Shown: piece after piece, positions 2,275 to 40,328 of the stretch
Position numbering within the stretch: position 1 is the stretch's first letter
How the letters are laid out: every line of letters begins with the position of its first letter
Assembly: GCA_964399675.1 (NCBI GenBank)
Contig: CAYNRK010000003.1
Location: 73,033-137,032, forward strand
Source: an uncultured Gammaproteobacteria bacterium
GTDB lineage: Bacteria; Patescibacteriota; Patescibacteriia; UBA9934; GWF2-40-263
DNA length: 64,000 nucleotides
Direction of reading: 5' to 3'
Made by a program: the position numbers and the translations under genes
The notes under the pieces: generated by a model
The model's database searches: none
What the model was told of the DNA's origin: nothing
Seen by the model: the letters and a program-made list of their open reading frames with translations, nothing else

Positions 2275-5200
2275 ATGTCAAAGTTTGTCCATCTTCACAC
2301 ACATTCCCACTTTTCATTACTTGAGGCTTTGCCAAAAACAAAGGATCTTTTGAATCATGTTAAAGAATTGGAAATGGATACGGTTGCTGTGACAGATAAT
2401 GGAACAATGTACGGAGCGATCGAGTTTTATCAAAAGGCTGTGGCAATGAATATCAAACCCATAATGGGAGTTGATTTTTATCTTGCTCGTAATGGCCGTC
2501 ATCAAAAGCGTGCGCGCGTTGACAAAAAATCACATCGTCTTGTGTGTTTGGCTGAGAATAATGCCGGTTACAAAAATTTGATTCAGCTTTCCTCTATTGG
2601 TTTTTTGGAGGGTTTTTATTATAAGCCACGAATTGACAAAGAAATTTTGTCATCACTTACCAATGGTTTGATTGCGCTTTCCGGAGGGCACATGAGTGAG
2701 ATTGATGAGTTTTTGCGTCTTGATCGCGCAGATGAAGCGGAAAAAGTTATTCTTGAGTATGTAAAAATGTTTGGTGAAGGAAACTTTTTTCTAGAGTTGG
2801 TTGATCGACCAGAGATTGGTGAACAAGAGGCAGTAAACACTCAGCTTATTGAGCTTTCAAAAAAACTTAATGTTCCCACTGTTGCCACAAAGAATACATT
2901 TTATTTAAGACCGCAAGATGTTGAGGCGTGGAAAGTTTTGAATTGCATTAAGGGCGGCAAAACACTTGAGCAGTTCGATCGCATGAATCAGTTTGATTAT
3001 GATGCATCCATGGTTAGCGGTAAGTATATGGAAGCGCGTTTTAAAGATGTGCCTGAGGCGATTGAGAATACGCGTCGCATTGCTGATCGATGCAATGTTG
3101 AACTTAAGCTTGGGGAGTGGAACTTTCCGCAGTTTGTTATTCCTGAGACAAAAACGTTTAGGCAAGTTCTAACTGACAAAGCATATATAAGTCTTGAAAA
3201 AAAGCTTGGCAAGTTAACCGATGAAATGAAAGAGCGCATGGAGTATGAGCTTGAGATTATTGATCAGAAAGGTTTTTGTCCTTACTTTTTAATTGTGTCT
3301 GACTTTATTAACTGGGCTCGTGAGAATGGAATTGTTACAACAACACGTGGATCTGCCGCAGGTTCGCTTGTAAGTTATTCAATTGGAATTTCTTCAATCA
3401 ATCCACTGACATATGAATTGCCGTTTGAAAGATTTTTAAATCCTGAAAGACCGTCCGCTCCTGATATCGATGCTGACTTTGCTGATAACAGACGCGATGA
3501 GGTTTTGGATTATGTGCGAGAAAAGTATGGTCATGAAAAGGTGGCTCAGATCTGTACGTTTGGAACAATGCTTGCGCGCGGTTCTGTTCGAGATGTTGGG
3601 CGGGGTCTTGGATTTGAATACAGCATGGTTGATGAGATTGCAAAACTTGTTCCAATGGGGTCGCAAGGTTTTCCAATGACACTTGATCGTGCCCTTCAAG
3701 AATCAGTTGATCTGAAACAAAAATATGATACAGATGCAAATGTTCGTCGTGTTATTGATTTGGCTCGTCAAATTGAAGGTTGTTCGCGACATGTTTCCAT
3801 TCATGCTGCCGGCACAGTAATTTCACCAACTGATCTTACAGACTTTACGCCATTGCAAATTGATACGCGCGAGGGAAAAGTGATTACGCAGTATGAAATG
3901 AAATCTGTTGAGTCAGCCGGGCTTATAAAAATGGACTTTTTGGGAATTCGCAACTTGTCGATTTTGGGAGATGCAATTGCGCTTGTTAAAAAAACAAAAG
4001 GAATTGATATAGAACTTGAATCAATTCCAATTGATGATAAGAAAACCTTTCGATTATTGGCCAATGGACAGACAATGGGTGTGTTTCAGTTGGGTGGAGA
4101 AGGAATGACAAAGTATTTAATGGATCTAAAACCAACGCGTGTTGAGGACATTATGGCAATGGTGGCTTTATATCGTCCCGGTCCTATTGAATCAATTCCA
4201 GAGTACATCCAACGCAAACACAACCCATCTCTTATTTCATATTTGGATGATCGAATGCGAGACATTTTGAAAAAATCAAACGGAGTGATTGTTTATCAGG
4301 ATGATGTGATGCTTATTGCAATTCATTTGGCAGGTTATTCCTGGCTTGAAGCGGATAAATTAAGAAAAGCAATGGGAAAGAAAATTCCAGAGGAAATGGC
4401 AAAACAAAAAGTTAAATTGCTTGAAGGTTTCGTTGAGCACGGGCTTTCAGAAGATCAATCACAGCGATTGTGGAAATTGATTGAGCCATTTGCTGCTTAT
4501 GGATTTAACAAGAGTCATGCTGCAAGTTATGGAATGGTTGCGTATCACACTGCTTTTATGAAAGCAAATTATCCGGCTGAGTACATGACAGCGCTTATGA
4601 CTGCAGAGTCCGGAGATCTTGATAAGGTTGCAGAAGCTGTTCGTGAGTGTGAGCGTATGGGGATTGAAGTGTTGTCACCGGATATTGATGAATCGCGAAA
4701 ACACTTTACCTACATTGATGACAGCACAATTCGTTTTGGTTTGTTAGTGATTAAAAATCTTGGAGATGAGGTTGTTGAAACAATGATTGAAGAGCGAAAA
4801 CAAAATGGCTCATACAAAGACCTTACTGATTTTGCCGGCCGTGTTGCGCACAGAGCGTTTAATAAAAAGTCTCTTGAAGCATTGATCAAAGCTGGGGCGC
4901 TGGATAGATTTGCAGAAAGAAAAAGACTGCTTGAGAATGTGGATCGGATTCTCATGCACAATAAAAATATTCAAAAAGAAAAATCAGCAAATCAGCAAAG
5001 TTTGTTTTCTTTGGCTCCGGACGCAATTGATTCGGGAATTTCATTAAGAGATGTAGAGCCGGCAACAACCAAAGAGTTGCTTGTATGGGAAAAAGAACTT
5101 TTGGGTATGTATGTTTCAGCGCACCCATATGAACAAGTTGAAAAAGAGTTAGGTAAACATTTGTTGGCTTGCAATGCGCTTGACAGCAAAAAAAATCGTT

Positions 5201-5799
5201 CAGAAGTTCGTTGTGGGGGAATTGTTACGTTCTCAAAAGAAATTGTTACAAAAAAAGGTGATCCAATGGCGTTTGTTGGCCTTGAGGATATTAGTGGAAG
5301 AATGGAAGTTGTTGTGTTTCCGCGCGTGTATCAAAAAGCTCGGCACTTGTTGGAAGAAGATGTTTTGGTTCTTGTTTCAGGAAAAATATCAAAACGATCA
5401 GGTGAAGATACAAAATTGCTAGCAGATGAATTCATGGAGATTAAAGAAGAAAGACTGGAAAAGATGAAAACAATGCTTGCGCAAGGTGATTGGTTTCAAG
5501 ATAAAACTCCTGAATTTGTTCCGCAAGAAAATACACAGGAAAATACACAAAATGAACCCGAGGTTGTTCTGCATAGTGGTTCTTTGTCAATTATGTTAAA
5601 GGGTAAACCAACCCCAGACATGATTAAGCATTTGCGTAAGATTTTGCAGGCTTCCCCTGGAGACCAAACAGTCTGCTTGCTTGTTGAGTCAGGTGGTAAG
5701 ATGCGACAAATTCAAACAGATTATTCTGTAAGTGTGACAGATGATATGGTTGAAGAAATTGCGCAGTTGGTCGGGCGACAGAATGTGTCTGTGGTATAA
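2275..5799 (+). CDS. dnaE: DNA polymerase III alpha subunit
   Basis: 1174 aa. The N-terminus has a PHP-domain start (FVHLHTHSHFSLLEA), followed by polymerase core, OB-fold and C-terminal regions. Confidence 0.9.
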   Translation: MSKFVHLHTHSHFSLLEALPKTKDLLNHVKELEMDTVAVTDNGTMYGAIEFYQKAVAMNIKPIMGVDFYLARNGRHQKRARVDKKSHRLVCLAENNAGYKNLIQLSSIGFLEGFYYKPRIDKEILSSLTNGLIALSGGHMSEIDEFLRLDRADEAEKVILEYVKMFGEGNFFLELVDRPEIGEQEAVNTQLIELSKKLNVPTVATKNTFYLRPQDVEAWKVLNCIKGGKTLEQFDRMNQFDYDASMVSGKYMEARFKDVPEAIENTRRIADRCNVELKLGEWNFPQFVIPETKTFRQVLTDKAYISLEKKLGKLTDEMKERMEYELEIIDQKGFCPYFLIVSDFINWARENGIVTTTRGSAAGSLVSYSIGISSINPLTYELPFERFLNPERPSAPDIDADFADNRRDEVLDYVREKYGHEKVAQICTFGTMLARGSVRDVGRGLGFEYSMVDEIAKLVPMGSQGFPMTLDRALQESVDLKQKYDTDANVRRVIDLARQIEGCSRHVSIHAAGTVISPTDLTDFTPLQIDTREGKVITQYEMKSVESAGLIKMDFLGIRNLSILGDAIALVKKTKGIDIELESIPIDDKKTFRLLANGQTMGVFQLGGEGMTKYLMDLKPTRVEDIMAMVALYRPGPIESIPEYIQRKHNPSLISYLDDRMRDILKKSNGVIVYQDDVMLIAIHLAGYSWLEADKLRKAMGKKIPEEMAKQKVKLLEGFVEHGLSEDQSQRLWKLIEPFAAYGFNKSHAASYGMVAYHTAFMKANYPAEYMTALMTAESGDLDKVAEAVRECERMGIEVLSPDIDESRKHFTYIDDSTIRFGLLVIKNLGDEVVETMIEERKQNGSYKDLTDFAGRVAHRAFNKKSLEALIKAGALDRFAERKRLLENVDRILMHNKNIQKEKSANQQSLFSLAPDAIDSGISLRDVEPATTKELLVWEKELLGMYVSAHPYEQVEKELGKHLLACNALDSKKNRSEVRCGGIVTFSKEIVTKKGDPMAFVGLEDISGRMEVVVFPRVYQKARHLLEEDVLVLVSGKISKRSGEDTKLLADEFMEIKEERLEKMKTMLAQGDWFQDKTPEFVPQENTQENTQNEPEVVLHSGSLSIMLKGKPTPDMIKHLRKILQASPGDQTVCLLVESGGKMRQIQTDYSVSVTDDMVEEIAQLVGRQNVSVV

Positions 5800-5810: not shown

Positions 5811-7025
5811 ATGCCAACAAAAAAAAGCGCTCCGAAAAAGCGAGTGCCAGTGAAAAAAACTACAAGGAAAAAAGTTAAGCCAGTTGAAAAGATTTCCATT
5901 CAACGACCAAGCGCTATCCCGCTTGTGCTTTATCGTAGGATTGCGATCAGCTTTGTTGTTATTGTTGCAGCAGCGCTTGCAAGTGTTTTATATCTTTCTA
6001 CAATGCAGGCGGTAATTATTGTTGACTCAACTCAGTCTCCGATCACAGCAGAGTTGGTGCTTCACACAAGGGAAGTTCCTGTGAGTGATGGGCAAATTAA
6101 GGCGCAGATTTTTGAGCGTACAATTGGAAAAACAAAATCATTTGTGCCAAGTGCTGAAGGTGCAGAGGAAGTGGTTGGTACTGCAACAGGAAAAGTTACA
6201 ATTCATAGCACAGCAAGTTTTAATCAGCCACTTGTAAAAACAACCCGTCTTTTAACTGGGGATGGAAAACTGTTTCGGCTAAGCAGTGGAGTTACCGTGC
6301 CAGCTGGTGGAAGTGTTGAAGCTGGTGTTTATGCTGATGTTGATGGTAAAGAAGGTGATATAGGTCCAACACGTTTTTCAATTCCAGGACTTTCCGAGGT
6401 AAGACAAAAGTTGATTTATGCAGAAAGTTCAGATGCGTTTGTTGGTGGGGTGAGTACTATTTCAGTTGTGAGCGAAGATGAGTTGGAAAATGCTGCGAAA
6501 GTAGTTGAGCAAGAACTTGTTGATGAAGCGCAACAGGTTATGAAAGCGGAAATGGATCAAGAGTTTTCCGGTGAGTCATTGAGTATAGAAGTGACTCAAA
6601 AAGAGTTTAGTATTAAACCAAACACACAGGCTGACAAGTTTGATGTAACAATGACACTTAAGATTGGCGCGGTTTATTACGATCGAGCAGCTGCGGAAAA
6701 TATTGCGGTTCGAAAGTTGTATGAAGGTCTTGGTAAAGGTCAGGCTTTCACCAATGTTCTTTCAGATGAAATGAAAGTTGAGGTTCAGCAGTTTTCACAA
6801 TCAACCGGACGCGCAGTTATTCACGTGAGTCTTTCAGGACAAACAATTACTTCAAAAACTTCAGCAGCGCTTGGTGTGAGTCGGTTTGTTGGAATGACAG
6901 AGGAAGAGGTTAGGCAGTTGTTGTTACAGGAAGAAGTTGCTGAGTCAGTTGATGTGGAATTTTTCCCATTTTGGGTGAGGCGAGTGCCAAGGCTCAAGGA
7001 TCATATCTATATTGAGATTCGGTAA
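5811..7025 (+). CDS. hypothetical membrane-anchored protein
   Basis: 404 aa with a basic N-terminus, a single TM helix (IAISFVVIVAAALASVLYL) and a large extracytoplasmic domain. No family recognised. Confidence 0.5.
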   Translation: MPTKKSAPKKRVPVKKTTRKKVKPVEKISIQRPSAIPLVLYRRIAISFVVIVAAALASVLYLSTMQAVIIVDSTQSPITAELVLHTREVPVSDGQIKAQIFERTIGKTKSFVPSAEGAEEVVGTATGKVTIHSTASFNQPLVKTTRLLTGDGKLFRLSSGVTVPAGGSVEAGVYADVDGKEGDIGPTRFSIPGLSEVRQKLIYAESSDAFVGGVSTISVVSEDELENAAKVVEQELVDEAQQVMKAEMDQEFSGESLSIEVTQKEFSIKPNTQADKFDVTMTLKIGAVYYDRAAAENIAVRKLYEGLGKGQAFTNVLSDEMKVEVQQFSQSTGRAVIHVSLSGQTITSKTSAALGVSRFVGMTEEEVRQLLLQEEVAESVDVEFFPFWVRRVPRLKDHIYIEIR

Positions 7026-7069
7026 GAGGTTTTTGACTTATTTTTTCTTGGTGTTAAACTGAAAGCAGA

Positions 7070-7345
7070 GTGATTTCTAGTTATATGAAAACAAAAATTA
7101 AAAAAAAGGATTCAAAAAGAACTCGTGAGGCTATGGTAAAAATACCATTGTCTGCTTTCCGATATCTTTCCAGGTATCCTCGTGAGAAAAAAATCGTGAT
7201 AGAGATTTCAACAAAGGATATTAAAAGAGTGAATGATGCCGAAACGCTTGACGAGATTTTAAATGAAGTGCGACTCGAATACGCATTAGGCAACCACAGT
7301 ACTCACAAAAGTGCTAAAAGTCTGATTGCTGCTCTTGAGTCGTAA
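7070..7345 (+). CDS. putative antitoxin partner of the RelE/ParE-like toxin (start uncertain, possibly ATG at 7134)
   Basis: Small ORF immediately upstream of and abutting the toxin gene, with TTGACT-N16-TAAACT upstream. The protein has no recognisable family by eye. Confidence 0.4.
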   Translation: MISSYMKTKIKKKDSKRTREAMVKIPLSAFRYLSRYPREKKIVIEISTKDIKRVNDAETLDEILNEVRLEYALGNHSTHKSAKSLIAALES

Positions 7346-7346
7346 T

Positions 7347-7610
7347 ATGCAAGTAAATCTCTCGCCGCGCTTCAAGCGAGCATATAAAAAGCTGCCGCGG
7401 CATTTGAAAGAAGATTTCAAAGATAAAATTGTAACATTTATTAAAGACCCACGTCATCCAACGCTTAAAACGCATAAACTCAAAGGTAAATATCAGGAGT
7501 GTCTCGCGTTTCGGCTACAAGATGGATATAGGGTCCTTTTTGAATTCTCAGCTTCTGACACAGTAGATTTATTGGATATAGGACCGCACGATATTTATAA
7601 AAAACGATAA
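7347..7610 (+). CDS. relE: type II toxin, RelE/ParE superfamily (mRNA interferase-like)
   Basis: About 88 aa. The motif KLKGKYQECLAFRLQDGYRVLFEF...DLLDIGPHDIY matches the RelE/ParE core. It sits in a toxin-antitoxin arrangement. Confidence 0.65.
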   Translation: MQVNLSPRFKRAYKKLPRHLKEDFKDKIVTFIKDPRHPTLKTHKLKGKYQECLAFRLQDGYRVLFEFSASDTVDLLDIGPHDIYKKR

Positions 7611-7623
7611 GGAGCCATGGGGT

Positions 7624-7699
7624 CAGGTCGTTAATTGTAGCGTTTGAATATTTTTGTGCCATCAAATCAAGCAAACCCGCTTGATTTTTTGGTTGATTT
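7624..7699 (+). repeat. junction repeat J1 (…CGTTAATYGTAGCGTT…ATCAAATCRAGC…GCTTGATTTTTTGGTTGA) including an intrinsic terminator hairpin
   Basis: The same roughly 60 bp module recurs at 9284-9344, and its right half recurs at 8421-8442. The hairpin atcaaatcaagc/gcttgatttt plus a T-run terminates relE. Confidence 0.6.
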
Positions 7700-7710
7700 A
7701 AAAAGAAATC

Positions 7711-7746
7711 CCGCACGAGAAGCGCAAGGCTTCGTCTGTGCGGGGT
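7711..7746 (-). terminator. intrinsic terminator of GC-rich gene A
   Basis: On the minus strand, the hairpin cccgcacagacgaagccttgcgcttctcgtgcggg is followed by ATTTCTTTTT. Confidence 0.6.
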
Positions 7747-7765
7747 GTTGTCTTCTTGCGAGTAG

Positions 7766-8317
7766 CTACCTCGCGATCGAAGTTCGCTCGAAGAAGATGC
7801 CGTTACAGAGAACGTGGCTGGGGCCGGCCGATCCCTCGTAGGAACCGACGTGTTCGATGGCCCGTCCGAAACGTTGGAAGTGCTCCATCATGGACTTCAG
7901 GAGCTCGGTCGCATCGTCACTGCGATCGATTTCGGATCCGCCTCGCACCTCGCTTTCACTGAGGTAGAGATCGATCTTGCCGTCGACGTCGACGTACCAC
8001 CGTACCGGATCACCGCCGGGTGAGGCCAGGGTCAGCACGAGGAACGGCTGCTTGAAGGGTCCCGGATTCTCTGGGTCGTAAGGCAAGTGCTTCAGGTCTT
8101 GCCTCTTGGACTTGAGACCAAGGGCGATCTGCAACCCCTCCCGAGACACCACGGTGGGGTCCACGGACAGGAGATCACTCAACAGGCCAGACTCGAGAAG
8201 TCTCTGCAACACATCTCCATCGAGCCCCTGCTCGGAGATCAGCTGAAGGACAGCATGTGCCTGTGCGAGCGTTGCGGGCTTCTCACGATCAGATCGGACT
8301 GCGCTTCCTTGTGGCAT
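7766..8317 (-). CDS. GC-rich foreign ORF A, hypothetical protein (183 aa)
   Basis: Roughly 60% GC in an AT-rich context. A strong SD (ctAAGGAGGaactgcgATG) precedes the start and the gene has its own terminator. The protein composition is protein-like on the minus strand. No family recognised. Confidence 0.6.
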   Translation of the reverse strand: MPQGSAVRSDREKPATLAQAHAVLQLISEQGLDGDVLQRLLESGLLSDLLSVDPTVVSREGLQIALGLKSKRQDLKHLPYDPENPGPFKQPFLVLTLASPGGDPVRWYVDVDGKIDLYLSESEVRGGSEIDRSDDATELLKSMMEHFQRFGRAIEHVGSYEGSAGPSHVLCNGIFFERTSIAR

Positions 8318-8420
8318 CGCAGTTCCTCCTTAGTAAACGGCCGACGACATTGCCTGCCGAAAAGACATTTCAGCATATTATGTAAACTTTGTCAATTAGA
8401 AAGGGTCCAGATTGGGCGAA

Positions 8421-8442
8421 CTTGCTTGATTTTTTGGTTGAT
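8421..8442 (+). repeat. junction repeat J2 (right half only: CTTGCTTGATTTTTTGGTTGAT)
   Basis: 22-mer shared with J1 and J3, lying between GC-rich gene A and the RhuM-like cassette. Confidence 0.5.
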
Positions 8443-8639
8443 AAAACATACAGTCTTAGATGTTGTTTGTGCGAAATGAATTCGTATATGCACTAGTTAA
8501 GCGACATGCTAAATATCGAAAATTAGAAGATTCCGTGCTTACGGTCATTGTTCCTGTCCACGAAAAAGATCTTCGTTATGGCACATTCCGATCTATTTTA
8601 CGTCAATCAAAATTTTAACTGATAAATTGGTTTTAAATT

Positions 8640-9278
8640 ATGAACAAAAAAGATAATTCAATCGTTTTATTTCATGAAAAACAGGTTCGTCGTTATTGGG
8701 ATAATGAAAAAGAGCTTTGGTATTTTTCAATTGTAGATGTAATTGAAATTCTTACTGACTCGACTATTCCAAGAAGATACTGGAGCGATCTTAAAGGTAA
8801 ATTAAAAAAAGAAGGAAGTGAAGTGTACGAAAAAATCGTACAGTTGAAAATGATTGCTCCAGATGGAAAAAAAAGAGACACGGATTGTTTTTCTACTGAA
8901 GATTTACTTCGTGTTATTCAATCAATTCCTTCACCAAAAGCTGAACCTTTTAAATTATGGCTTGCTAAAATTGGACACGAAAGAATTGAAGAAACTGAAG
9001 ACCCAGAACTTGCTTTTGAAAGAGCCATGCAAACGTATCTTAAAAAAGGACATTCTAAAGATTGGATTAATCAAAGGCTTAAAAGTATTGAAGTCAGAAA
9101 AGAATTAACTGATGAATGGAAAGAAAAAGGTATGAAAGAAGGTTTGGAATATGCAATTTTAACAGACGAAATTACAAAAGCTTGGGCTGATAAATCAGTA
9201 AAACAATACAAGACTTTCAAGAGTCTTAAAAAACAGAGTTTGAGAGACAACATGACCAATCTTGAATTGGTTTTATAA
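8640..9278 (+). pseudogene. RhuM/Bro-N-like (DinD-type) protein, C-terminally truncated
   Basis: 212 aa. The N-terminus (VRRYWDNEKELWYFSIVDVIEIL) looks Bro-N-like and the ORF ends at ...LRDNMTNLELVL directly before junction repeat J3. Family members I recall are about 100 aa longer. Confidence 0.5.
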
Positions 9279-9283
9279 AGGGG

Positions 9284-9344
9284 GCCAGGTACGTTAATCG
9301 TAGCGTTATCAAATCGAGCGTAGAGGCTTGATTTTTTGGTTGAG
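9284..9344 (+). repeat. junction repeat J3 (full copy) with terminator hairpin
   Basis: cgttaatcgtagcgttatcaaatcgagcgtagaggcttgattttttggttga, nearly identical in architecture to J1. Confidence 0.6.
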
Positions 9345-9406
9345 ATTTGACATATATAACGCGTTGCGTTATTATTAACGGCGCTCATTATTAACAGCTC
9401 TTTTGT

Positions 9407-9688
9407 ATGATTCAGAGTTTCGCTGATAAAGAATCAGAGAAGTTGTTTCAGAGGCAACGTTCCAAAAAACTTCCAACAAATATTCAAAAAACTGCTTATA
9501 GAAAATTGCTCATGCTAAGTGCTGCGGTGAACATAAATGATTTACGTGTTCCGCCAGGCAATTGGTTGGAGAGATTAAAAGGAGATCGAAAAAAAGAACA
9601 TAGTATTCGAATTAATGATCAATGGAGAATTTGTTTCATCTGGAAGAATGGAAATGCACATCATGTCAAAATCGAAGACTATCATTGA
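9407..9688 (+). CDS. higB: HigB toxin (RelE/ParE superfamily, plasmid maintenance killer protein)
   Basis: 93 aa. MIQSFADKESEKLF...LKGDRKKEHSIRINDQWRICFIWKNGNAHHVKIEDYH is a textbook HigB pattern. Confidence 0.8.
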   Translation: MIQSFADKESEKLFQRQRSKKLPTNIQKTAYRKLLMLSAAVNINDLRVPPGNWLERLKGDRKKEHSIRINDQWRICFIWKNGNAHHVKIEDYH

Positions 9689-9729
9689 GAAAAGCAAAAA
9701 AATAAGAAAAAAATATGCGCGTCGCCAAA

Positions 9730-10020
9730 ATGATCACCATCGTCCATCCAGGAGAGATCCTTAATAAGGAATTTTTAAAGCCACTTGAAATTTCACAGTA
9801 TCGGTTAGCAAAAGATATTAGTGTTCCACCGCGGCGTATTAACGAAATCGTACTCGGAAAGCGATCGATAACAGCCGACACCGCTCTGCGTCTGTCGCGA
9901 TATTTCAAAATGTCACCAGAGTTTTGGATGAATCTACAATCACATTACGATCTTGAAATGCAGAGCGACAAGATTGGAAAGCGGTTAGAGCAAGAGGTTT
10001 CTGTTGGTGTGTTTGCTTAG
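9730..10020 (+). CDS. higA: HigA antitoxin, XRE-family HTH
   Basis: MITIVHPGEILNKEFLKPLEISQYRLAKDISVPPRRINEIVLGKRSITADTALRLSRYF matches the HigA/VapI HTH. It lies immediately downstream of higB. Confidence 0.8.
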   Translation: MITIVHPGEILNKEFLKPLEISQYRLAKDISVPPRRINEIVLGKRSITADTALRLSRYFKMSPEFWMNLQSHYDLEMQSDKIGKRLEQEVSVGVFA

Positions 10021-10037
10021 AAAATGAAATATTATCT

Positions 10038-10511
10038 ATGACCAAGCAAGACTTAGAACAAATCGTGAACTACATTGTTGAGCAAGGACAACGGGCAATT
10101 AGTGAGAATACTGACGAAACAAATCTGTCCATTGATTACATGGGAATTTTTTGCAAAGACGATTCTGAGTTTTTAGAAATGGAAAGTCTTTTAAGTACCC
10201 TTGGTAAACCAGGAGACAAAACTGCAACAAAGTCAGGTTCAACTTTTTTGTTAGATACGCCTTTTGATACGCCGGCTGGTCTACTAAAAGTACTCAAGGC
10301 AAGGAAGCCAGACAAGACAAGACCTCAGCGCGGCGCACCTGATTTTAAAGTTAATGATTACCAGGCATTCAAAGAAAAATATTTTTTAAGCGGAACAAAC
10401 TCCAACTTTTCATTAATGATCAGAAAGGAATACGAAATGTTTGAACTCAAGGGTGAGGATGTTTTAGTGTATTTTCCAAGTCTGGCATTTGATGAGAGGC
10501 AACCGGCCTAA
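10038..10511 (+). CDS. hypothetical protein (157 aa), last cassette of the island
   Basis: AT-rich ORF with no recognised family, followed by a 46 bp perfect-arm palindrome. Confidence 0.45.
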   Translation: MTKQDLEQIVNYIVEQGQRAISENTDETNLSIDYMGIFCKDDSEFLEMESLLSTLGKPGDKTATKSGSTFLLDTPFDTPAGLLKVLKARKPDKTRPQRGAPDFKVNDYQAFKEKYFLSGTNSNFSLMIRKEYEMFELKGEDVLVYFPSLAFDERQPA

Positions 10512-10526
10512 AGAATTTTGGTAGTA

Positions 10527-10572
10527 TTTCGTACATTAAATTCGTATATGCGAATTTAATGTACGAAATAGA
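10527..10572. repeat. 46 bp near-perfect palindrome (22 bp arms)
   Basis: atttcgtacattaaattcgtatatgcgaatttaatgtacgaaat. The central 13-mer aattcgtatatgc also occurs at 8477-8489 at another cassette boundary. Confidence 0.7.
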
Positions 10573-10805
10573 GCTGCACAGAACTTGACGTCTCTCCCTC
10601 AATACGATACGATTTTTTTGTTGCGGGGACAAAGGACAAGTGGTTTCAAAAGCTGCCAACAGAGACAAAGGGTCAAGGCTGAGAGCCCTTTGAGGAAAGT
10701 CTGATATCACACCACCTTTTGAGCAACACCTACAAAGTAAGGGGTTAATCGGTGAGAAAAACCAATTAACAATTCGGGTGGAACCGTCTGGCCTTTAAGC
10801 TGGAT

Positions 10806-10838
10806 CCCGAAGCTTCACTTGCGTGAAGTTTTTTGTTT
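10806..10838 (+). terminator. intrinsic terminator
   Basis: cccgaagcttcacttgcgtgaagtt followed by TTTTGTTT. Confidence 0.6.
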
Positions 10839-10850
10839 AATAAATTTAAA

Positions 10851-11016
10851 AGAAATTTATGGAAATAGATTGAAATAGATTCAAAATATGGAAATAAATA
10901 GAAATAGATTGAAATAAGCAGAAATTTGTTGAATACAACTTAATTTCTATAAGTTTCTACCTATTTCCGTACTCTGAACCTATTTCCACATATTTCTACT
11001 ATATTTCAATAACAAT
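10851..11016. repeat. GAAATAG(ATT) iteron-like array arranged as a long imperfect inverted repeat upstream of thrS
   Basis: The left half ggaaatagattgaaatagattcaaaatatggaaataaatagaaatagattgaaat is mirrored by a right half ctatttcc...ctatttcc...atatttct...atttcaat around a near-palindromic centre. Confidence 0.6.
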
Positions 11017-12759
11017 ATGGACACAAAACAATTACAAAAAAACAGACATTCAATTTGCCACATGATGTCAATGGCGATTCTTGAGATTTATCCAAAAGCC
11101 GGGTTGGGTGTTGGGCCGTTTATTGAGAATGGTTTTTATCAGGACTATGATTTGCCTGAGCCAATCTCAGATGAGATTTTTGACGAGCTTGAAAAGCGAA
11201 TTAAGGAAATGATTAAGCAGAATATTGCGTTTGTTCAGCATGACATGTCTTTTGAAGATGCACTTAAGGAATACAAACACGATCCGTATAAAACAGAAAT
11301 GATCGAACAGCTAAAGGAGAAGGGGGAGAAGAGTGTTAGTTTTTTTAAGTCAGATGAGTTTGAGAACTTGTGCAAAGGGCCGCATGTTGGCACAACAAGT
11401 GAAATTGATCCAGACAGTTTTAAATTAACAAAAGTTGCTGGAGCTTATTGGAGAGGGGATGAAAAGAAAAAAATGCTTACGCGTATTTATGGTGTTGCGT
11501 TTGCAAACAAAAAGGAACTTGATGCGCATTTAAAAATGTTAGAGGAAGCTGAAAAGCGTGATCACAGAAAAATTGGTCAAGAACTGGATCTGTTTCACTT
11601 TTCAGATCTTGTGGGATCAGGCCTGCCTTTGTTCACAGAAAAGGGGACAGCAATTCGTGACGTTCTTAAAGATTTTATTTGGGATCTCATGAAGCCGTAC
11701 GGATATACTCGTGTGACAATTCCTCATATTGCAAAGTCGGACTTGTACAAAAAATCAGGCCATTGGGATAAATTTGCTGATGATATTTTTCATGTTTCAA
11801 GTCAGAAAACAGAACAGAAGTTTGTTATCAAACCAATGAACTGTCCTCATCACACTCAACTTTACGCAGCCCGTCCGCGATCATACAGAGATTTGCCGAT
11901 TCGAATGAGTGAAGTAACTGCTGTGTATCGAGATGAGAATACTGGACAACTTCAAGGTTTGTCTCGGGTTCGATCGATTACGCAGGACGATGCGCATGTA
12001 TTTTGTCGCATGGATCAGGTTGAGGAAGAGGTGTTGGCACTCTACGACATTGTGAAAAAGTTTTACGCTGCTTTTGACATGCCTCTTAATGTTGCTCTTT
12101 CTCTGAGAGACCCAAAGAAACCTGAAAAGTATTTGGGTGATGATAAAGTTTGGGAAAAGTCAGAAGGAACACTTAGAGACGTTCTTAAGAAATTGAAGAT
12201 CGAGTTTGTAGAGGAAGAAGGTGAGGCAGCTTTTTACGGACCAAAGATTGACTTTATTGCCACAGATGCAATCGGACGTAAATGGCAGCTTGCCACAATT
12301 CAGTTGGATTTCAATTTGCCTGAAAGATTTGAGCTTGAATATATTGATTCTGACGGAAAAAAGAAACGTCCAGTCATGTTACATAGAGCGATTTTAGGTT
12401 CGGTTGAAAGATTTTTGGGGGTGCTTATCGAGCACTATGCTGGAGCGTTTCCTTTTTGGCTTGCGCCAGTGCAGGTTAGGCTTGCAACAGTGAGTGAGGA
12501 TTATGTTGAGTTTGCGGAAAAGTTGAAAGCGGATTTGTTTGAAGCTGGGATTCGTATTGAGCTTGATGGGTCAGCAGAAAAAGTTGGAAAGAAGATTAGA
12601 AATGCTGCCAAGCAAAAAATTCCGTGGACAATTGTGATTGGGAAAAAAGAAGCAGAAGGAGGTGACTTCACAGTAAACGCGTTTGGCAAAGAAGAAGATC
12701 TGACAATATCTCAAGCTGATTTCGTAAAAGAAGCCCAAAAGCAAGGTTCAATTAAATAG
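11017..12759 (+). CDS. thrS: threonine--tRNA ligase (short form lacking N-terminal TGS domain)
   Basis: 580 aa with class II aaRS motifs and the ThrRS catalytic and anticodon-binding regions (HRKIGQELDLF, MNCPHH, FYGPKIDF). Confidence 0.9.
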   Translation: MDTKQLQKNRHSICHMMSMAILEIYPKAGLGVGPFIENGFYQDYDLPEPISDEIFDELEKRIKEMIKQNIAFVQHDMSFEDALKEYKHDPYKTEMIEQLKEKGEKSVSFFKSDEFENLCKGPHVGTTSEIDPDSFKLTKVAGAYWRGDEKKKMLTRIYGVAFANKKELDAHLKMLEEAEKRDHRKIGQELDLFHFSDLVGSGLPLFTEKGTAIRDVLKDFIWDLMKPYGYTRVTIPHIAKSDLYKKSGHWDKFADDIFHVSSQKTEQKFVIKPMNCPHHTQLYAARPRSYRDLPIRMSEVTAVYRDENTGQLQGLSRVRSITQDDAHVFCRMDQVEEEVLALYDIVKKFYAAFDMPLNVALSLRDPKKPEKYLGDDKVWEKSEGTLRDVLKKLKIEFVEEEGEAAFYGPKIDFIATDAIGRKWQLATIQLDFNLPERFELEYIDSDGKKKRPVMLHRAILGSVERFLGVLIEHYAGAFPFWLAPVQVRLATVSEDYVEFAEKLKADLFEAGIRIELDGSAEKVGKKIRNAAKQKIPWTIVIGKKEAEGGDFTVNAFGKEEDLTISQADFVKEAQKQGSIK

Positions 12760-38165: not shown

Positions 38166-38175
38166 TCATTTTTTT

Positions 38176-38308
38176 GTGTCATTGCGAGGAGGCCGTCAGG
38201 CCGACGAAGCCCTCGGCCGTGCCCGTCCTACGGGCGAGGCAATCCTCGTATTAATGAATACTATACTACGGAGATTGCTTCGGCCAGCTTCGCTGGCCTC
38301 GCAATGAC
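38176..38308. mobile_element. MITE-like palindromic repeat, family 2 (GTCATTGCGAGG … CCTCGCAATGAC termini)
   Basis: tgtcattgcgaggaggccgtcaggccgacgaagc...gaggcaatcctcgtat...cctcgcaatgac. Related copies are at 52347, 56178 and 57241. Confidence 0.7.
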
Positions 38309-40328
38309 GCGGGGATTTTTTTGCCAAAAAGAAAAGTAGGGCCCTCTTCGATTCGCACCGAAGGGGGCCCAGAAGGACGCCAGAGTAACAGTGGGTGACC
38401 GCCCGAAGGTGGCCACAGCTTCGCCAGTGTTAGCGTCCGAGTTGTTCCGACGCTGGAGCAAGGTGTCGCGTTCGAGCAAGGCTCGCACGGACACACAGGC
38501 TCCATGTCTCTTCTTGGCTGAGTGGTCGGTTCTTACACCTACCTCTCTTGATGATCGGTTGCTTCTTGTGGTCCGTGGGAGGACCTTGCAGGAACTTTCG
38601 CCGTGAAGCTAGGTTCCACATCCAATCTCCAACTGTCTCGAAGACCTTCTGTATCATCCCCGAAGGAATGACCTTACTTTTTCTCATGTCTGGCCCGAAG
38701 ACCAAGTTAGCTTTCCCCCGAAGAGTACTTGCATCATGATACTTTTTCAGTACAGCCGAAGCTGCATCAGAAGAGGAACGACAACGATTTTCGACCGTTA
38801 TTTATTATCCCTTTGTTTCCTTGGGGATCTTTCGTTGGTTACTCGCTGTGCAACCTTTACGAAAGTGGTCTATCCATTGCTGGATTTCGTTACCTTTTGG
38901 AAGCTCTTTTGGTCGAAACCTCTGGAACTCCCTCACCTTACTTTGGCCGAAGCCGTTTCTGGTTTTTTAGCTCCCCATGCCTGGGTTGCTCAGATCTTTC
39001 GACCTGTTGAGTAATCTGTGACTGATTGATGGATCAGCCATTACTCTTAACGATTTTCAACCGCTATTTATTATCCCGTTGTTTCCATTGGGATCTTTCG
39101 TGGTTATGTCGAGCAAGCTCTAGTAACCTTACGAAAGTTGGTTTATCCTTCGTTTGATTGCTCAAACGTTAGGATTCTCGTTACTTTTTTGGTTGCCCTT
39201 TGGTCTCCCTCTAGGCTTCCTCACCATTTCAGCCGAAGCTTACTTTGGATTTTTGGTCCACATTTGACTACCCGGAGGTCTTCAATTGCTTTCCAAGGTG
39301 TTTCCACCTTTGATCAACACTGGTGTTGGTTTTTAATCAACACCCATCCTGCTTTCCCACAGCTTGTTTCCTGCAAGTCTTTGCTTCCTGTGCCCAGGTA
39401 AGCTTGACTTACTTGTTTCTTGGCTGCTTTCTACAGAATGACTCTGCTTTGGGTGTGGCTTTTGTTTTCCCGCTCGTTTTCTCCGCGTTTCCTTGGAGAC
39501 TCGGTTGCTTGTTTTCCATTTCCGCACTTTGGCAGAGTTTTTGGATCGGTTTACCCGTTCCTTTTTGTTTGCATTAAGGCCTTCCCCGCTATTCCCACCG
39601 AAGTGGTTTTCATCACGGAATCGTTTCATCAGGATTGCTCCCGAATCACTGCCTTTCATGCAATGTATTCCTTGTAGTCCTTTGTTTCCCGTCCGGTTAC
39701 CCCTCTGTCTCCAGTGAGGTTCGTTACTTGTTTCCACTTAGAACTACTTGGTTTTTTGGACCGGTTTACCCGCTCCTCTTCGTTTCCTTCGGATTGTATT
39801 CCCGAGCTTATTTCCGCAACACACGTGCTGTGGCTTTGGGCTCTTGTATTCTCTCCGTGTACTTACGAAGACGTGCTGATCTGGTCTGACCAGGCTCCCA
39901 GGGCAGTTGATTACTCTGTCGGCCTTGTCGCACGTGATGTCCAGATTAAACTAAGAAGTATTTCCTGTCAAGCCCCCCGGAATGACTAGTTTTTGATAAA
40001 AGACGTTGGTTATCCACAGAGGTGAGGATGGGATTGGTGGATAAGCATGGATGTTACCGGGAAGGACTGTCCCGGTAACACCTAAATTTTTGGAAAAGAA
40101 AGCGGATCCAGTCTTGGATCCGAGAAGAAGGGTGTTGGTGAAGGCGACAAGGAAGAGGTGCCGCGGTGTTGCGGGCTCTTGTTTCACTGCCCCAGGCCAG
40201 CAGGGCAGTTGTCGTTCGGAGGTAGAAGTCGTGGGGCGGCACCTCTTCCCGTCGCACCTCACCGCGACCAGCACCATGGGTGGTGGTGGTCAGATACGCC
40301 TTGAAGATACCGTTTTTCCCCGTTTTTG
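38309..40328 (-). other. 2.0 kb ORF-less, strand-biased insertion between prfA and prmC (candidate large structured ncRNA or tandem sRNA array)
   Basis: No protein-like ORF is present on either strand. The operon (minus) strand is purine-rich, with many gaaa, cgaaag and cttcgg motifs. There are roughly 266 bp tandem units at 38785 and 39051 and repeated cggtttacccg motifs. Confidence 0.4.

Follow-up and report, generated by a model that had tools for sequence, protein, structure and literature searches.

Small accessory units set between short repeated sites are known from several bacterial systems. In the accretion of integrative and conjugative elements (ICEs) and cis-mobilizable elements (CIMEs), and in Xer modules such as the integrative mobile elements exploiting Xer (IMEX) and the pdif modules of Acinetobacter, short direct-repeat cores flank the units, and pdif modules often carry toxin-antitoxin (TA) genes. 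The dif, lox and att core sites likewise share an architecture of inverted arms around a short centre. Further points of comparison are the integron arrays, including clusters of attC sites lacking an integrase (CALINs), and the TA hotspots of bacteria of the Candidate Phyla Radiation (CPR). Against this background we examine an islet of ~3.6 kb at positions 7026-10584 of a 64-kb stretch of contig CAYNRK010000003.1 (this whole stretch is hereafter the window), in which TA genes and orphan genes are separated by copies of a repeated junction module. A sequence-only reading of the same DNA, made without database searches, had likened it to an integron-like or CALIN cassette array, or to a defence island. 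We find that it is a lineage-specific insertion in the chromosome of a member of Candidatus Uhrbacteria, a CPR lineage, and a cassette-like mosaic of foreign origin comprising four compact units: 1) a ParE/RelE toxin unit; 2) a GC-rich orphan open reading frame (ORF) on the minus strand; 3) a HicA-like toxin ORF with a truncated Bro-N gene; 4) a HigBA pair followed by an orphan gene, orf157.

The islet extends from the stop codon of the p404 gene (7025), which codes for a 404-aa membrane protein, to the thrS promoter, whose -35 hexamer TTGACG stands at 10585. The flanking genes dnaE (2275-5799), p404 (5811-7025) and thrS (11017-12759) belong to the core complement. The nearest orthologues of p404 are found in Candidatus Uhrbacteria (~55% identical), and the dnaE-p404-thrS synteny is kept in the loci of ~28 Uhrbacteria relatives. 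The gap between p404 and thrS measures 14-431 bp in 24 of the 28 loci, as against 3991 bp here, and in most relatives p404 leads directly into the T-box leader of thrS without intervening genes. Two of these loci (L137 and L140) display the succession of p404, a TTGACG promoter, the T-box leader and thrS, with the same promoter as that at 10585 in the window. Because the thrS promoter and T-box of the relatives directly adjoin p404, the sequence between 7026 and 10584 is extra, lineage-specific DNA. The foreign origin of its units follows from the composition of the orphan ORF (60% GC as against a background of 38-40%) and from the Bro-N gene, whose DNA shares 88% identity with that of a copy from a different organism of 33% GC. 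Thus, the proposal that foreign units form an island enclosed by two core genes holds, and neither of the observations named beforehand as speaking against a cassette array, namely a common terminator recurring after core genes or the same genes in the same place in relatives, was made in the window or in the relatives.

The ENA, JGI and Logan assemblies contain 18 contigs with an identical islet. With the same sequence in 18 contigs from three assembly sources, an assembly chimera as the source of the GC-rich insert is ruled out. No strain variant without one of the units was found among the contigs of this population, all of which are identical, and hence there is no evidence of current mobility; two apparent variants (L179 and L180) were rejected as scaffolds with N gaps. 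In four other lineages (L165, L167, L171 and L172) the place between p404 and thrS is occupied by other, unrelated genes. Given these different genes, and the TA-like genes at neighbouring intergenic positions, the location can be regarded as a variable spot. In having TA and orphan genes wedged between core genes, and TA-like genes nearby in relatives, the islet resembles the CPR TA hotspots; it differs in its repeated junction module, since no similar junction repeats were found in the relatives' islets of comparable size.

The junction module is marked by an 18-mer, GCTTGATTTTTTGGTTGA, which occurs exactly at 7679-7696, 8424-8441 and 9326-9343, all within the islet. No repeated 18-mer arose in 300 shuffles, and the rest of the window has a single match with 3 mismatches (chance expectation 0.48 at up to 3 mismatches). 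Copy 1 of the module (7619-7696, plus strand) consists of GGGGTCAGGT, the hairpin CGTTA-ATTG-TAGCG, a 16-nt spacer, a terminator-like hairpin with a 9-bp stem and a 6-nt loop, a T-tract and GGTTGA, and it possibly starts already at the toxin stop codon (7608). Copy 2 (9281-9343, plus strand) lacks the 16-nt spacer, has the loop GTAGAG, and probably starts at 9275 with an ATAA from which the truncated Bro-N gene takes its stop codon. These two copies (63-78 nt) align over their full length save for one 16-nt indel, and show a common order of GGGGYCAGGT, a 5-bp hairpin (CGTTA-ATYG-TAGCG), a 9-bp stem with a 6-nt loop, the T-tract and GGTTGA; the box CGTTAATYGTAGCGTT is found in the window only at 7629 and 9292. 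The copy between them, termed here copy 1.5 (8404-8441, plus strand), combines a diverged left arm and loop (AGATTGGGC GAACTT) with the exact 18-mer. All copies are identical in the 18 nt formed by the right arm, the T-tract and GGTTGA. The repeated element had been recognized before, with its full copies placed within a few bases of these positions; its supposed half copy at 8421-8442 is a genuine repeat, albeit a diverged whole hairpin rather than half of one.

We then asked how widely the module is distributed. In the window and ~400 kb of sequence from relatives, a covariance model (R1) of the hairpin and 18-mer recovers only the three islet copies, with the next best match at E = 0.18. 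As far as these sequences extend, a common genome terminator is rejected as an explanation. The 18-mer alone, among the matches listed for public genome contigs, gives single matches with unrelated flanks, at chance level. The JGI metagenome collection, which evidently does not contain this organism, has no match to the hairpin with 18-mer, and the viral contigs of IMG/VR have 3 chance matches to the 18-mer and 0 to the 5' box. The islet shares with repetitive extragenic palindromes (REP), bacterial interspersed mosaic elements (BIME) and terminators resembling miniature inverted-repeat transposable elements (MITE) the presence of a hairpin and T-tract at gene 3' ends in several near-identical copies, but differs from them in having three copies only, within 1.7 kb, with none elsewhere in the window or in the relatives' loci, and in lacking terminal inverted repeats or target-site duplications.

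The identity between the copies changes in abrupt steps. Leaving the loop and the indel aside, copies 1 and 2 agree at ~95% of positions; they differ at 5 of 6 loop positions and at 3 of 56 elsewhere (p ~5e-5 by our own arithmetic). Copy 1.5 matches copy 1 at 9 of 18 positions to the left of the 18-mer and at 19 of 19 from it onward (hypergeometric p ~4e-4), and 8 of the 9 left-arm differences are transitions (~1e-3 for unrelated sequence, again by our arithmetic). The similarity among all three copies ends directly after GGTTGA, and the next unit begins shortly thereafter: the terminator of the GC-rich ORF starts 13 nt past copy 1, hicA 18 nt past copy 1.5 and the -35 hexamer of higBA 3 nt past copy 2. 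On the other side, homology of the Bro-N gene to its intact counterpart ends at 9274, 7 nt before copy 2. The GC-rich unit, with its terminator, ORF, ribosome-binding site and -35 hexamer, occupies 7697-8403 almost exactly as one transcription unit. Uniform decay gives no steps of this kind; they point to recombination joints or to very local constraint. They also bear on a purely local history, in which a relBE-plus-module segment was duplicated in tandem and later indels erased the second and third TA copies, leaving the modules as relics. Such a history would be in keeping with the close similarity of copies 1 and 2 outside the loop, with the stop-codon stretch resembling the end of relE with which copy 2 opens, and with the truncated genes, which suggest deletion scars. 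It sits poorly with loops that differ almost throughout in otherwise near-identical copies, and with a middle copy that is 50% diverged in its left half and identical in its right half; of the explanations considered here, we hold it to be the least probable.

Comparison with integron arrays and CALINs reveals several similarities. The islet has units of ~0.7-0.9 kb, each followed by a similar direct repeat, is rich in TA genes, has no integrase nearby (as in CALINs), and includes one inverted unit with its own promoter. The three sites lie 745 and 902 bp apart; a CALIN calls for two or more similar sites within 4 kb, bounding cassettes that are intact and mostly promoterless. However, what the three islet copies share is 18 nt of sequence and not a structure, the units have their own promoters, two genes (hicA and the Bro-N gene) are incomplete at the joints, and the last unit has no site. 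A regular-expression scan of both strands of 6900-10700 found no RYYYAAC (R'') and GTTRRRY (R') pair separated by 50-150 nt, and among the precomputed matches of genes called across the window there is no integrase or transposase Pfam family. As DNA, copies 1 and 2 fold, while copy 1.5 reaches only -1.5 kcal/mol on the plus and -0.6 kcal/mol on the minus strand, not better than shuffles. In the absence of an attC core pair, a shared single-stranded DNA fold and an integrase family among the genes called in the window, we reject an integron or CALIN. The view that the junction repeat is no canonical attC is thereby confirmed, and the integron-like layout suggested alongside it falls on the same evidence, together with the truncated or promoterless genes at the module edges. 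A search of the literature on integrons or attC sites in CPR, and on the PDC-S13 family discussed below, returned nothing relevant.

With ICE accretion and Xer modules the islet shares units without a recombinase of their own, and sites with inverted arms, a 6-nt centre and one better-conserved arm. In contrast to Xer modules, whose 28-bp sites consist of XerC arm, spacer and XerD arm and which in the case of IMEX lie at the terminus, its junctions have no dif-like XerC/XerD arms, and pdif sites alternate in orientation. The single 11-mer resembling a XerD arm, TTATGTAAACT at 8378, lies away from the junctions, inside the promoter region of the GC-rich unit, and is no more than chance would give; no GC-skew switch occurs at the islet. 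A dif, IMEX or pdif site was rejected on these grounds. More generally, the hairpin might be the core site of a site-specific recombinase of the tyrosine type encoded elsewhere in the genome, with two inverted arms of 9-12 bp around a 6-nt spacer, such that units are captured and excised as circles and any terminator activity is a side effect; integron cassettes, tandemly accreted integrative elements and Xer-dependent modules would be its models. Several features speak for this: the three sites are direct repeats that bound compact units, with two copies exactly delimiting the GC-rich unit; variation among the copies is absent from the right arm, marked in the left arm and extreme in the 6-nt centre, a layout like that of dif, lox or att core sites; and all three copies break off at the same sharp 3' boundary. 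Against it, the spacers differ among the copies, which few tyrosine recombinases would tolerate, and copy 1.5 shows hardly any palindromy as DNA. Moreover, the segment from copy 1.5 to copy 2, a promoterless hicA with a truncated gene, is no precise cassette, and the last unit is without the site. The lack of a recombinase family among the genes called in the window, of matches above chance level in the JGI and IMG/VR collections, and of population variants points the same way. On balance we regard a site-specific recombination site of this kind as unlikely. A more specific form of the idea, to which we assign a slightly smaller chance still, is that the 9-6-9 hairpin is the recombination site of an undescribed CPR cassette-capture system, in which the sites double as terminators and the recombinase, possibly the host Xer, is encoded elsewhere; it would work like an integron or a pdif-module array with unrelated sites.

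The alternative to a joining role is that the module is retained as a terminator. Copies 1 and 2 score as terminator-like, with 9 pairs (3 G-C) closing a 6-nt loop and TTTGGTTGA behind the stem; they lie after relE and the Bro-N gene respectively, and so have the form of intrinsic terminators, namely a stem-loop and T-tract with a co-oriented gene upstream. The hairpin can form in all three copies only as plus-strand RNA. These observations would accommodate a scenario in which the copies are the shared 3' untranslated region (UTR) and terminator of related TA cassettes from one donor pool: each unit brought its own copy, the 18-mer plays no part in joining, and either gene conversion or selection acting on termination has kept it identical. 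Copy 1 of the module indeed opens at or near the stop codon of the toxin gene, copy 2 provides the truncated gene with its stop codon, and the loop varies freely where the stems do not, which is what a hairpin under selection would show. However, selection on a terminator constrains pairing and not an exact stretch of 18 nt that includes GGTTGA past the T-tract; the middle copy follows no plus-strand gene and forms a weak hairpin, yet has a perfect 18-mer; the GC-rich unit and the Bro-N gene are no TA cassettes; and the intact Bro-N relative has no such module. We therefore consider a shared 3' UTR improbable, if somewhat less so than a dedicated recombination site. Three other sources of conservation were rejected: 1) coding, because the overlapping minus-strand ORFs read copies 1 and 2 in different frames; 2) a minus-strand promoter in the 5' box (TACAAT / TACGAT), because the 16-nt indel breaks any common spacing; 3) an IS200/IS605-type element with the hairpin as its right end, because the sequences past the three copies share nothing.

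Taken together, the explanation that we favour, and to which we would give about an even chance, is that the islet is a mosaic in which the exchange of units took place at copies of a terminator-bearing 3' flank of a toxin gene. Small foreign transcription units would have been successively inserted and replaced in the space that separates p404 from the T-box leader of thrS; three of the four end in copies of one 3' module starting at or near a toxin stop codon. The two strong copies are predicted to insulate the adjacent units, several of which code for toxins, from read-through. The invariant 18-mer would serve as the joint at which units are exchanged by recombination at a short identical sequence, either through short-homology recombination or through a site-specific enzyme, and such exchange may have left the truncated genes at the module edges. 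What we observe directly is the insertion, the repeat, the steps in identity, the truncated genes and the lack of attC features, whereas terminator activity and the mode of recombination are inferred.

Several observations weigh against this mosaic model. The hairpin of copy 1.5 has 2 G-C and 4 G-U pairs, no plus-strand gene lies upstream of it, and it failed the terminator scan; with a poor terminator and no co-oriented gene before it, insulation cannot account for its intact 18-mer. Changes that preserve wobble pairing in this copy would be expected in ~28% of cases from transition bias alone, and therefore constitute only weak evidence for selection at the RNA level. An identity of 18-19 bp is short for RecA-dependent recombination. 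Furthermore, there are only three copies of the module, in one clonal population with identical contigs in which no insertion or excision is observed, and the confinement of the module to the islet is established for the window and ~400 kb of sequence from relatives.

Turning to the individual units, the first opens with a promoter-like site at 7033-7060 on the plus strand (TTGACT, 16 nt, TAAACT with a TG), which comes from a consensus scan only. The toxin of this unit (87 aa; 7347-7610, plus strand) is assigned to the ParE/RelE superfamily by matches to PF15781 (E 4e-8), PF05016 (E 4e-6), TIGR02385 (E 3.6e-7) and phrog_1213 (E 1e-11), exceeding the curated cut-offs for the first three. It is preceded by a putative antitoxin of 86 aa (7085-7345, plus strand; an alternative GTG start at 7070 would give 91 aa), whose stop lies 1 nt before the toxin ATG and which is called by gene callers on several contigs. 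This upstream ORF has no match in Pfam, NCBIfam, PADLOC or PHROG and hence belongs to no antitoxin family recognized there, so that only the toxin half of the RelBE-like pair proposed earlier is supported by profiles.

The second unit contains the orphan ORF of 183 aa at 7766-8317 on the minus strand, whose foreign composition had been correctly noted and recurs in all 18 contigs. Expression signals for it can be read from the sequence at 8325-8395 (minus strand) with AAGGAGG at 8331-8325 as the ribosome-binding site and, at 8395-8390, a -35 hexamer that reads TTGACA without a mismatch, while a consensus scan found no canonical -10; a terminator-like hairpin with 7 pairs, 4 of them G-C, and a T-rich tail lies at 7710-7728 on the same strand. 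The protein comprises two domains (residues 13-75 and 76-183), the second of which matches a family of ~110-130-aa proteins with the motifs PFKQPFLVL and YEGSAGPSHVL. No match that would give a function was obtained in Pfam, NCBIfam, PADLOC, PHROG, PDB, plasmids or phages, and the AlphaFold model is poor, with a predicted local distance difference test (pLDDT) score of 56.

The third unit begins with an ORF overlooked by the sequence-only reading, which encodes an orphan HicA-like toxin of 52 aa (8460-8618, plus strand; PF07927 E 1e-6, 29.1 bits as against a cut-off of 27; phrog_353). It is N-terminally short, covering positions 21-56 of the 58 in the PF07927 model, with in-frame stops at 8442 and 8457. 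No HicB adjoins it, the next gene being the Bro-N gene, so that there is no HicAB pair, and no promoter was found in the 18 nt that separate its start codon from the 18-mer. The Bro-N gene (212 aa; 8640-9278, plus strand) has relatives of 275-285 aa, and its product covers positions 3-211 of 286 of PDC-S13, which PADLOC lists as a candidate for single-gene defence, and 2-211 of 274 of phrog_15286. Since the profile matches end at position 211, the gene is truncated at its 3' end with ~68 residues of the protein missing, and the full length of these families (~275-286 aa) is not reached. Consistent with this, among the best 120 of more than 8000 matches the homologues are mostly 273-291 aa long. 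The intact copy mentioned above (L185 1723-2562) comes from another organism of the same sample series, and its DNA similarity to the gene in the islet covers only 8635-9274. The proteins are 80-90% identical across Patescibacteria, Planctomycetes, Omnitrophica, Peregrinibacteria and others, and this high identity across many phyla points to very frequent horizontal transfer. We conclude that the hicA/Bro-N unit is a decayed remnant, promoterless, without an antitoxin and with its 3' end lost. Of the earlier label of a truncated RhuM/Bro-N-like gene, Bro-N and the truncation stand, while profile searches gave no RhuM match. The notion of a defence island finds little to sustain it: the sole match to a defence library is this truncated candidate gene, and the remainder are TA genes and orphans.

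In the fourth unit a promoter-like site at 9347-9375 on the plus strand (TTGACA, 17 nt, TATTAT; 11 of 12 positions) starts 3 nt past copy 2, with operator-like repeats nearby at 9371-9401. It is followed by the HigB toxin (93 aa; 9407-9688, plus strand; PF05015 E 1.9e-22, phrog_3066 E 1e-31) and, after a 26-nt gap, by the HigA antitoxin (101 aa; 9715-10020, plus strand; TIGR02607 E 4.4e-32, PF01381), which has a helix-turn-helix (HTH) domain. This toxin-first order with an HTH antitoxin bears out the HigBA pair that had been proposed. The 157-aa orf157 (10038-10511, plus strand) is probably co-transcribed with higBA, given the gap of 18 nt after higA. As anticipated, it belongs to no known family, with no match in Pfam, NCBIfam, PADLOC, PHROGs, PDB, plasmids or phages, and its AlphaFold model is unusable (pLDDT 41).

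Between this unit and thrS lies a 46-bp palindrome (10525-10570), with four TTCGTA-type half-sites and the core TTCGTATATGCGAA at 10541-10554. Its 23-nt arms are 96% complementary, it folds with z = -9, and it is located 15 nt upstream of the thrS -35 hexamer. The core belongs to a motif, TTCGTA-NN-TACGAA, which is found in the window at 10541 and six times in the relatives' loci (L139 9661, L146 8243, L150 111, L171 3393, L176 280 and 855), where ~0.03 occurrences would be expected. Of the five sites in L139, L146, L150 and L176, 4 lie within the flanks TGACGAC... and AAAA(A/G)TGT just upstream of accessory genes, that in L139 having GGACAAAAG ... AAAATAT instead. The L171 site is part of a 30-bp palindrome between the inserted gene and thrS, at the same position as in the window. 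The flanked pattern was not found in IMG/VR. Because the motif recurs in relatives, we read the palindrome as an operator-type site rather than as the end of the array, for which it had been taken when first noted: it is probably a protein-binding site of this lineage, and the motif looks like the operator or promoter of a lineage-specific regulator. The recurrence of its 13-mer within the islet is real, at 8479 rather than at 8477 as first given. However, 26% of shuffles contain one or more repeated 13-mers, which puts this recurrence at chance level, and a second palindrome site at 8479 was rejected accordingly.

A few additional observations concern the surroundings of the islet. The T-box leader of thrS at 10617-10812, which the relatives share, scores 43 bits as against the Rfam gathering score of 93, and so escapes annotation by Rfam at default settings. 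An AT-rich insert of ~180 nt (10833-11016) separates the T-box terminator from the start codon of thrS. It is built from GAAATAGATT-type repeats, some of them inverted, and forms a long hairpin (z = -7), and its motif occurs nowhere else in the window. In L137 and L140 thrS begins ~35-45 nt past the T-box terminator. The pheST-dnaE-p404 cluster of relatives holds TA-like genes at other intergenic positions (L139 3625-5398 and 8930-9976; L176 65-1163), of MNT/HEPN-type, AbiEii-like and HicA/HicB-like kinds, along with a conserved Zn-ribbon ORF overlooked by gene callers.

Elsewhere in the window, ~2.1 kb between a prmC-like gene and prfA (38166-40328, minus strand) contain no convincing ORF. 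This segment has a GC content of 43-55% as against the background of 38-40%, a strong AT skew, many UUCG and GNRA-type loops, and internal repeated modules (38783/39049 and 39538/39753), and the folding of its minus strand is much more stable than that of shuffled sequence (z = -8.8 and -5.1). No Rfam match at E <= 0.1, no tRNA and no phage match was found for it. We consider it a candidate for a large structured RNA.

The genomes of CPR bacteria are tiny, and little is understood of the ways in which accessory genes enter and leave them. Here a fixed intergenic spot within a conserved cluster of replication and translation genes takes up foreign units, including a gene of 60% GC and a widely shared Bro-N gene. 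The TA-rich variable spot is the familiar part of this picture, and the junction module with its invariant 18-mer the unusual part. If the module were only a shared terminator, the islet would be an ordinary TA hotspot with a tidy architecture; if, on the other hand, this terminator-like sequence should prove to be a recombination site, it would represent a new cassette system.

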